From: a virus
Lineage: Duplodnaviria; Heunggongvirae; Uroviricota; Caudoviricetes
Reading direction: 5' to 3' (one strand)
DNA: 11,346 nucleotides
Virus record (IMG/VR): IMGVR_UViG_2896607866_000003
Span: 1-11,346 of that record
Both the position numbers and the translations under genes were made by a program. Within the stretch, counting starts at the first letter, position 1; every line of letters begins with the position of its first letter. This document shows positions 9,328-10,592 of the stretch, one piece after another. The notes below the pieces were generated by a model, which was given only the letters and a program-made list of their open reading frames with translations, was not told the DNA's origin and searched no databases.

Positions 9328-10242
9328 ATGTCTGTAGTGATATCAGGTGCGCTGACTGATGGCGCAGGTATCCCCATGTCCGGATACCATATTATTCTGA
9401 AATCCCGGGTAAACACCCCGGAAGTGGTGATGAACACTGTTGCTGATGTGATGACAGGAAACGATGGTGAATACTGTTTCCATGCGCGGACTGGAAAATA
9501 TGGTGTGTATCTGAAACAGGACTGGCGCAACGAGTACAACGTTGGCGACATTGCTGTATATGAGGACTCAAAGCCCGGCACGCTGAATGACTTTCTGATT
9601 GCTCCTGATGAGGGCGACCTGAAACCGGATGTCGTCAAACGCTTTGAGGAAATGGTGGCGCAGGCGCAGCAGAGCGCCGGGGCCGCAGCCGGAAACGCAC
9701 AGCAGACGGCGCAGGATGTGGCGGCAGCCGCAGGTTATGCCCGCGCAGCAGAACAGGCCAAAAATGACATTGATGCTGCGCTGACCGGCACCCTGAAAAC
9801 GGCTAACCATCTGTCTGAAATCGCAGCAGCAGGCGAAAAGGCACAACAGAAGTCCCGGGATAATCTGGGGCTGAAAAGTGCGGCCACGATGGAAGCACAG
9901 AGCGACATTTACGACCGGACAAAAGGCCGTCTGGCGATACCCGGCGCATTCGGCTTTGGGTGTGCTTTTCTGCCTGAAGATGTTATCCGTTTTGACACTA
10001 AGAGTGATTTCCTGGCCTGGGTAAGGAATGTGCTGCCAGTTGAATATTCCGTTGCTGGCCCCTACGGCATCATCATACCCGACACACGGTTTGAAGGGGG
10101 GCTCAGCATCCGGTGGACTGATGCACGCCCTGAGACAACAGAACCGCGGTACAGAGCCAAATCCCTTACTTTTTACGGCATTAACGGCCCCATTTATCAC
10201 ACCCGCTACTGCTACTGGCCCATATCCAGACTGACTGGGTGA
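9328..10242 (+). CDS. Short side-tail-fibre-like protein (conserved prophage tail-fibre N-terminal domain, Ala/Gln-rich linker, unique C-terminal domain)
   Basis: MSVVISGALTDGAGIP…VYEDSKPGTLNDFL…VVKRFEEMVAQAQQSAGAAAG parallels the N-terminus of E. coli e14/Rac-type Stf proteins (MAVKISGVLKDGTGKP…VYEDSQPGTLNDFL…). I do not recognise the C-terminal 120 aa. Confidence 0.65.
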   Translation: MSVVISGALTDGAGIPMSGYHIILKSRVNTPEVVMNTVADVMTGNDGEYCFHARTGKYGVYLKQDWRNEYNVGDIAVYEDSKPGTLNDFLIAPDEGDLKPDVVKRFEEMVAQAQQSAGAAAGNAQQTAQDVAAAAGYARAAEQAKNDIDAALTGTLKTANHLSEIAAAGEKAQQKSRDNLGLKSAATMEAQSDIYDRTKGRLAIPGAFGFGCAFLPEDVIRFDTKSDFLAWVRNVLPVEYSVAGPYGIIIPDTRFEGGLSIRWTDARPETTEPRYRAKSLTFYGINGPIYHTRYCYWPISRLTG

Positions 10243-10592
10243 AAATAAATATAACCACAGAAGATATTATTTACAGAATCGTGGCGAGCTCTGTCCGCAA
10301 CAGATGGGGAGACCCTGACATTGGCGGGCTGATTATTGCTGCGTACCAGGGAGAAGCTGACGGTGATAAAGTCATCAGACTTGTCAGGGGGCAGTCATAC
10401 AGAGGCTCACGACTGGGACCGGTGGGGATTTCAGTGCCCAGTACTCCCACCGGAACGTATATAGCATCCCCACAATTTTTCATTACGGGATGTTCAGAGC
10501 ATTCATTACCGGGGTCATATTGCGCCCTGTCCGGGGTGCCGGATGCTCATGTCTCTGGCGCAATGCCCGGGCTTTTTATTCGCACATCGTGA
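10239..10592 (+). CDS. Hypothetical protein, 117 aa, translationally coupled to the tail-fibre gene
   Basis: GTG 10239 overlaps the upstream stop (GTGA); Gly/Ser/Pro-rich; no recognised family. Confidence 0.4.
   Translation: MKINITTEDIIYRIVASSVRNRWGDPDIGGLIIAAYQGEADGDKVIRLVRGQSYRGSRLGPVGISVPSTPTGTYIASPQFFITGCSEHSLPGSYCALSGVPDAHVSGAMPGLFIRTS

Follow-up and report, generated by a model that had tools for sequence, protein, structure and literature searches.

A fibre gene in two reading frames

The stretch of DNA analysed here is positions 1 to 11,346 of IMG/VR virus record IMGVR_UViG_2896607866_000003 (hereafter the window), and every one of its 11,346 bases agrees with Shigella flexneri CP024470.1 (100% identity). 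Near its right end lie two open reading frames (ORFs) that an earlier sequence-only reading took for a short tail fibre coupled to a separate protein of 117 amino acids (aa). Both ORFs exist as described, and the GTG that opens the second overlaps the TGA that closes the first in the tetranucleotide GTGA. We believe, with high confidence, that positions 9328-10592 are nevertheless one gene, for a side tail fibre in a phiP27-like prophage, inactivated by the loss of one CTGG unit from a tandem doublet. The features concerned are as follows.

9328-10242, plus strand: ORF of 304 aa (ORF listing and direct reading)
10239-10592, plus strand: ORF of 117 aa, in another frame than the 304-aa ORF (ORF listing and direct reading)
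10235..10242, plus strand: frameshift scar, with one CTGG (10235-10238) where relatives have CTGGCTGG, then an in-frame TGA (10240-10242)
9328..10592, plus strand: tail-fibre gene, now a pseudogene, 422 aa when intact (a 1269-nt coding sequence in NZ_CP065613) and here split into 304 and 117 aa

The evidence for one gene comes from a megablast search of positions 8800-11346 against complete E. coli genomes, ten of which carry nearly the whole stretch at 97-99% identity. In the best of these, E. coli NZ_CP065613 (locus L001; 98.9% DNA identity), the counterpart is a single 1269-nt coding sequence for WP_001343146.1, a 422-aa 'prophage tail fiber N-terminal domain-containing protein'. The sole length difference within the gene is four bases, ACTGACTGGCTGGGTG in L001 against ACTGACTGGGTG in the window (in wider context, ...CCAGACTGACTGGCTGGGTGAAAAT... 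against ...CCAGACTGACTGGGTGAAAAT...). With one CTGG unit of the CTGGCTGG doublet gone, a TGA falls in frame and the remaining 117 codons lie in the -1 frame; when CTGG is put back, a 422-aa ORF is regained that reads ...YWPISRLTGWVKINITTEDII.... Because the relative has a single 1269-nt coding sequence that differs in length by only these four bases, the GTGA overlap is a frameshift scar rather than a signal for translational coupling, and GTG 10239 is an internal valine codon rather than a start. We infer that replication slippage was the probable mechanism of the loss.

It is highly improbable, by comparison, that a 304-aa short fibre is translationally coupled via GTGA to an adhesin or maturation protein of 117 aa encoded apart from it, as the sequence-only reading had proposed. 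That arrangement can call on two real ORFs and a real overlap, and on an allele that is stable and widespread in Shigella, with the exact 117-aa product recorded on 174 contigs from S. flexneri and S. boydii, and with three complete genomes encoding the 304-aa product. However, the same residues form one continuous protein both in close relatives (98.9% identity) and in homologues down to approximately 31%, all of which read through the junction as one ORF, such that the 117-aa frame encodes the final 117 residues of a fibre tip, displaced by a 4-bp deletion, and is not kept as a gene of its own. It corresponds to the C-terminus of the tail-fibre profile phrog_2636; direct reading of the sequence upstream of GTG 10239 reveals no Shine-Dalgarno-like motif that could serve as an independent ribosome-binding site; an invariant tryptophan is lost at the junction; and the region holds no virion to which a short fibre might be attached.

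Other identities for the 117-aa ORF were also considered. It has no Pfam match at E values up to 0.1, and as it is the C-terminus of the fibre we rejected it as an independent family. A lambda Tfa type assignment (Caudo_TAP) was rejected for want of a PF02413 match, the Caudo_TAP matches in this region being the ORFs at 8933-9304 and 11167-11346. Four further ORFs lying antisense or in an alternative frame (9568-10200 minus, 9306-9638 minus, 10028-10234 plus and 10271-10483 minus) have no Pfam match and were taken as spurious.

Fibre architecture, the tip family and its probable downstream partner

Once the two frames are joined, the protein divides into three parts.

9328..9723, plus strand: N-terminal anchor of the lambda Stf type, a transthyretin-like beta-sandwich, residues 1-132
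9724..9861, plus strand: Ala/Gln-rich alpha-helical (coiled-coil-like) shaft or linker, approximately residues 133-178 (AlphaFold helix 100-179, at low to medium predicted local distance difference test, pLDDT)
9862..10592, plus strand: C-terminal tip, residues 179-422, from 'NLGLKSAATM..QSDIYDRT.GRLAIPGAFGFG' to 'GLFIRTS', broken by the frameshift

The first two parts bear out what had been noticed from the letters of the DNA. Residues 1-132 match the Prophage tail fibre N-terminal domain PF08400 at the N-terminus and above the gathering score (E 1.4e-70, 235.9 bits), and the Ala/Gln-rich linker is present, predicted to be helical over residues 100-179 and of different length among alleles. 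The third part had been described as unrecognised, and this holds for some collections but not for others. Pfam has no family over the C-terminal part of the 304-aa ORF, and NCBIfam has no model for the fibre or for the DUF4376 protein and the 59-aa ORF downstream of it (described below). The repaired protein, in contrast, matches PHROG 2636 (phrog_2636, 'tail fiber protein') with an E value of 1.5e-204, its best stretch aligning residues 133-421 with profile positions 272-567 of 568, continuous to the C-terminal end. The window copy qualifies for this family only once the 4-bp deletion has been repaired. The gene is of a known prophage tail-fibre type, for which RefSeq and PHROGs already have annotations.

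The seemingly unfamiliar C-terminal part and the 117-aa frame make up one tip module of approximately 244 residues, spanning ...LGLKSAATM-QSDIYDRT-G-LAIPGAFGFG to GLFIR-A. The suggestion that it might be a novel receptor-binding tip was not upheld, as the module belongs to an existing PHROG tail-fibre family that occurs in phiP27 and other phages. A tblastn search of phage genomes with the last 232 residues found tail fibres at 30-35% identity in phiP27, Rac-SA53, SerU-LTIIb, Av-05, vB_EcoM_TH18 and its relatives, an Actinobacillus phage and, partially, Goslar, where even the partial match crosses the junction. A profile search of a 5.8-billion-protein collection places the tip in 199 proteins and on three front ends, namely PF08400 (Stf-type), PF12571 (tail-collar, P2-like) and PF03406 fibre repeats. 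Such a distribution is classic for an exchangeable receptor-binding tip.

Every sequence in the alignments made (7, 18 and 29 members, with 31-54% identity to the query) reads on through the junction without a break, and W305, which the deletion destroys, is invariant. Members carry the motifs characteristic of the phiP27 L56-type tip (QSDIYDRT-G-LA-PGAFG-G ... W ... GGL-LAAY-G ... GSRL ... GLF-R) in one polypeptide, as invariant and near-invariant columns of the alignments. In the window these same motifs are divided over two frames, W305 is lost and the near-invariant G238 is valine.

A full-length AlphaFold2 model was built from the 29-sequence alignment on P0066, an intact homologue with an identical tip and divergent first 100 or so residues, and it shows a beta-sandwich N-terminal domain, a long helix at 100-179 and a C-terminal region with pLDDT mostly 84-91. 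A model of the tip alone (18 sequences) has a mean pLDDT of 83.9 and a predicted template modelling score (pTM) of 0.56. Searches of the PDB with the protein and with the 18-sequence tip profile recovered the N-terminal anchor only, the matches to the tip being noise (E at least 0.035, to unrelated proteins). As modelled, the tip looks like a fibre-tip or receptor-binding-protein domain with no close solved relative, and in this one respect the earlier description of it as unfamiliar is fair.

Directly after the fibre lies a gene that now seems the likelier candidate for the maturation partner once sought in the 117-aa ORF.

10603..11167, plus strand: DUF4376 protein gene, probable cognate tail-fibre chaperone (PF14301, E 3.5e-17)

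The PF14301 C-terminal domain scores 63.3 bits against a cut-off of 25 (61.7 bits in the intact form). The intact form would span 10603-11167 and is annotated as 207 aa in L001; by our reading of the sequence, GTG 10603 is preceded by GAGGAA at a distance of 6 nt, and the alignment with phrog_1141 begins at residue 19 of the annotated 207-aa form. This gene too is frameshifted in the window, where a run of nine T residues (T9) at 10664-10672 stands in place of the T8 found in L001, L003 and L005 (the latter two from S. flexneri), cutting off the N-terminus and leaving a 169-aa ORF from 10658. The T9 run is found only in this assembly, the E. coli relative and two other S. flexneri genomes having T8 and an intact 207-aa annotation, and the extra T may have come from an error in sequencing the homopolymer, not from a true mutation.

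What links the DUF4376 gene to the tip is its position. It lies 0-15 nt from the fibre stop in L001, L002, phiP27, L007, L008, L009 and L010, and its product is 75% identical to L57 of phiP27. Beyond phiP27, a DUF4376 gene of 186-190 aa is found directly behind the tip in four more contexts, of which two are Mu/P2-like E. coli prophages with PF12571, one is a Salmonella prophage whose fibre has PF03406 repeats, and one is a metagenomic phage whose 264-aa fibre has no anchor. The order of tip and DUF4376 gene thus holds whatever the anchor, be it PF08400, PF12571, PF03406 or none (L006, which is phiP27, and L007-L010). In the marine Alteromonas phages V22 and A5, a DUF4376 protein of approximately 190-240 aa is likewise encoded directly after the fibre gene (gp26/gp27 and gp8/gp9, respectively), and V22 gp27 and A5 gp9 have been shown experimentally to be intermolecular tail-fibre chaperones (PMC7289586, PMC10579305), whereas for the window protein this role is proposed by analogy. 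No resemblance of those fibres to the window fibre was detected, although no comparison aimed at it was made. On the basis of synteny across contexts and of these two characterised chaperones, the tip and the DUF4376 protein probably form a functional pair, and together they look like a two-gene, exchangeable host-range cassette.

The Stx2e phage phiP27 (NC_003356) provides a complete phage for comparison. Its L56 and L57 (NP_543108.1 and NP_543109.1) take the same place as the pair in the window, at the prophage's right end and following baseplate, fibre and Tfa genes; the order in phiP27 is baseplate genes, fibre L54, Tfa L55, fibre L56, L57 and attR. L56 and the window fibre share a PF08400 anchor, an Ala/Gln-rich shaft and the same tip family. 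Over the full length, identity between L56 and the intact homologue P0066 is 37%, and the N-terminus of L56 is of near-identical type to that of the window protein. L56 differs in being 490 aa long with a longer shaft, and in being intact within a complete phage, whereas the window copy is frameshifted. Because the L56 tip is only approximately 30% identical, the receptor specificity of the two probably differs. Lambda Stf (Ur-lambda; PDB 9e7m chain Ta) has a shaft and tip unrelated in sequence to those of the window fibre, and it uses a Caudo_TAP-type Tfa whereas the window tip is paired with a DUF4376 protein.

If these comparisons are a fair guide, the intact 422-aa fibre would be a trimer, as its homologues suggest, docked to the tail or baseplate by its lambda-Stf-type N-terminal anchor, with the short Ala/Gln-rich helical shaft joining this anchor to a tip of approximately 244 residues that presumably binds a host-cell receptor. 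The tip would be an exchangeable module that travels with the DUF4376 gene immediately downstream, whose product would act as an intermolecular chaperone for tip folding and trimerisation in the manner of V22 gp27 and A5 gp9. In this S. flexneri the module is dead, with a fibre frameshifted mid-tip, a frameshifted DUF4376 gene, an upstream Tfa gene truncated by an insertion sequence (IS) and the loss of the virion genes. The constant pairing of tip and DUF4376 gene on at least three anchors supports the view that DUF4376 proteins are a general class of enterobacterial tail-fibre chaperones, and tip plus DUF4376 gene would be the unit to transfer in host-range engineering. With regard to the window itself, the entries deposited under the names 'tail fiber protein' and 'putative tail fiber protein / hypothetical protein' ought to be treated together as a single pseudogene. 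The two ORFs should not be mined as a new adhesin pair, and they have little import beyond correct annotation.

Alleles of the CTGG doublet

WP_001343146.1, known from E. coli (including enteroinvasive E. coli) and S. sonnei and represented in our comparisons by P0038, P0046 and P0066, is the intact 422-aa allele of the window gene. The two share the context Tfa - fibre - DUF4376 - Tfa fragment - ipaH and differ in that WP_001343146.1 has CTGGCTGG for CTGG and in six amino acids. The exact intact sequence is recorded for 14 contigs that bear E. coli names; for another member of the 422-aa cluster, from S. sonnei, the number is 4. Three complete S. flexneri assemblies (L003, L004 and L005) carry the single-unit state, (CTGG)1, which occurs among them at two chromosomal loci. 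The states are split by lineage, with (CTGG)1 in the S. flexneri assemblies examined and (CTGG)2 in E. coli L001 and, as the 422-aa products imply, in S. sonnei. Because (CTGG)1 recurs in independent assemblies and the 117-aa product on 174 contigs, the CTGG deletion is a genuine allele associated with lineage, not a product of faulty assembly. An attempt to count independent truncations from 'partial' database proteins was abandoned, most of these being contig-end fragments.

The possibility that the 4-bp difference is a sequencing or assembly error in a gene that is actually intact is accordingly barely credible. Short repeats and homopolymers are error-prone, and the neighbouring T8/T9 difference, confined to this assembly, could be just such an error. 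However, an identical (CTGG)1 in three independent complete assemblies at two loci, and a 117-aa ORF on so many contigs, are not what an error would leave, and a 4-bp loss is atypical of homopolymer error.

We consider it just as implausible that the doublet is a switch between full-length and truncated fibre, whether by slipped-strand phase variation or by recoding. The indel is exactly one tandem tetranucleotide unit and both states occur in nature. Two repeat units are nevertheless far below the tract lengths that are generally known for contingency loci, the states are unmixed within the lineages examined, and a prophage without virion genes has nothing to vary. As for recoding, the site shows neither an evident slippery heptamer nor a stimulatory structure, although no search was made for them; programmed ribosomal frameshifting is also at odds with relatives that are single-frame and with a shift that is a lineage-specific 4-bp deletion.

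The sequence-only reading had raised, lastly, a fibre-like protein repurposed after loss of the virion genes. Those genes are indeed gone, and a residual role for the 304-aa product may exist, the break lying near a dip in confidence of the tip-alone model that may separate two sub-regions of the tip, but nothing positive was found to support such a role or any repurposing.

A dead single fibre gene, in contrast, fits the substitutions that distinguish the two alleles. There are 4 synonymous and 6 non-synonymous changes between the window fibre and the intact allele, the amino-acid differences between WP_001343146.1 and the window being N36H, C212R, V235A, V238G, G247D and G258V. Five non-synonymous and 0 synonymous changes are packed into approximately 140 nt (window 9961-10100, residues 212-258, in the first half of the tip), among them the replacement in the window (G238V) of a glycine conserved in at least 90% of the family. 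This cluster could be due to relaxed selection or to recombination over a small patch, and the allele changes and the decay of the locus together fit relaxed selection on a dead gene.

One of the S. flexneri copies lies elsewhere in the chromosome. In UGYT01000001.1 (L003, 9433-13845), the 304-aa frameshifted fibre is followed by the DUF4376 gene, the Tfa fragment and a gene for a 608-aa IpaH, and this cassette occupies another chromosomal site, with lepA-rnc-era-recO-pdxJ-acpS and an integrase as neighbours. This second site suggests that duplication, or homogenisation by recombination, acted on the cassette once the CTGG deletion was in place.

The decayed prophage around the fibre

The window is a decayed, IS-riddled S. 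flexneri prophage remnant beside an ipaH effector gene. The fibre and DUF4376 genes are flanked by the following features.

7613-8769, minus strand: IS3-family element (orfA 8467-8769, orfB 7613-8326), which we take to be IS600-like
8831..9304, plus strand: tail-fibre assembly protein (Caudo_TAP) gene of the preceding, deleted fibre, 5'-truncated by the IS (PF02413, E 3e-23)
11167..11346, plus strand: ORF of 59 aa, from the interior of a second Caudo_TAP gene (PF02413 positions 66-98, E 0.005, short of the family cut-off)

The Caudo_TAP gene upstream of the fibre lacks approximately 24 codons, including its start, as homology to the intact 181-aa gene of L001 (8929-9474) starts only at window position 8831, directly after the IS3-family element. 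This element has replaced everything between the antirepressor genes and Tfa codon ~25, such that leftovers of the early region now adjoin the last fibre module. At the other end, the 59-aa Tfa fragment is the last phage-derived sequence before ipaH (LRR_TTSS and NEL E3 ligase), which starts one base past the window end on the opposite strand (L004 12020-13783 minus; also in L001). The order fibre - DUF4376 - Tfa fragment - ipaH is found as well in E. coli NZ_CP065613 (ipaHb), and the locus is one more phage-remnant cassette carrying a chromosomal ipaH effector gene in Shigella.

The rest of the window consists of early-region leftovers, namely a DnaB_C fragment, NinB, NinE, a Gp49/HTH_3 pair and two antirepressors; no head, tail or baseplate genes are left in the prophage remnant. 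Two more IS elements, each an HTH_Tnp_1 and rve pair, lie at 319-1523 and 2550-3823 and are presumably IS911-like and IS2-like, respectively. The first truncates the phage DnaB_C helicase gene (1517-2200), and a second copy of it lies approximately 16 kb downstream in L004, within an alpha-2-macroglobulin (yfhM-like) gene. At 5160-5922, on the minus strand, overlapping genes encode a Gp49-family (HigB-like) protein of 154 aa and an HTH_3/HTH_31 protein of 102 aa, which look like a toxin-antitoxin module within the prophage remnant; the L005 copy of the Gp49 gene is shorter, encoding 109 aa.
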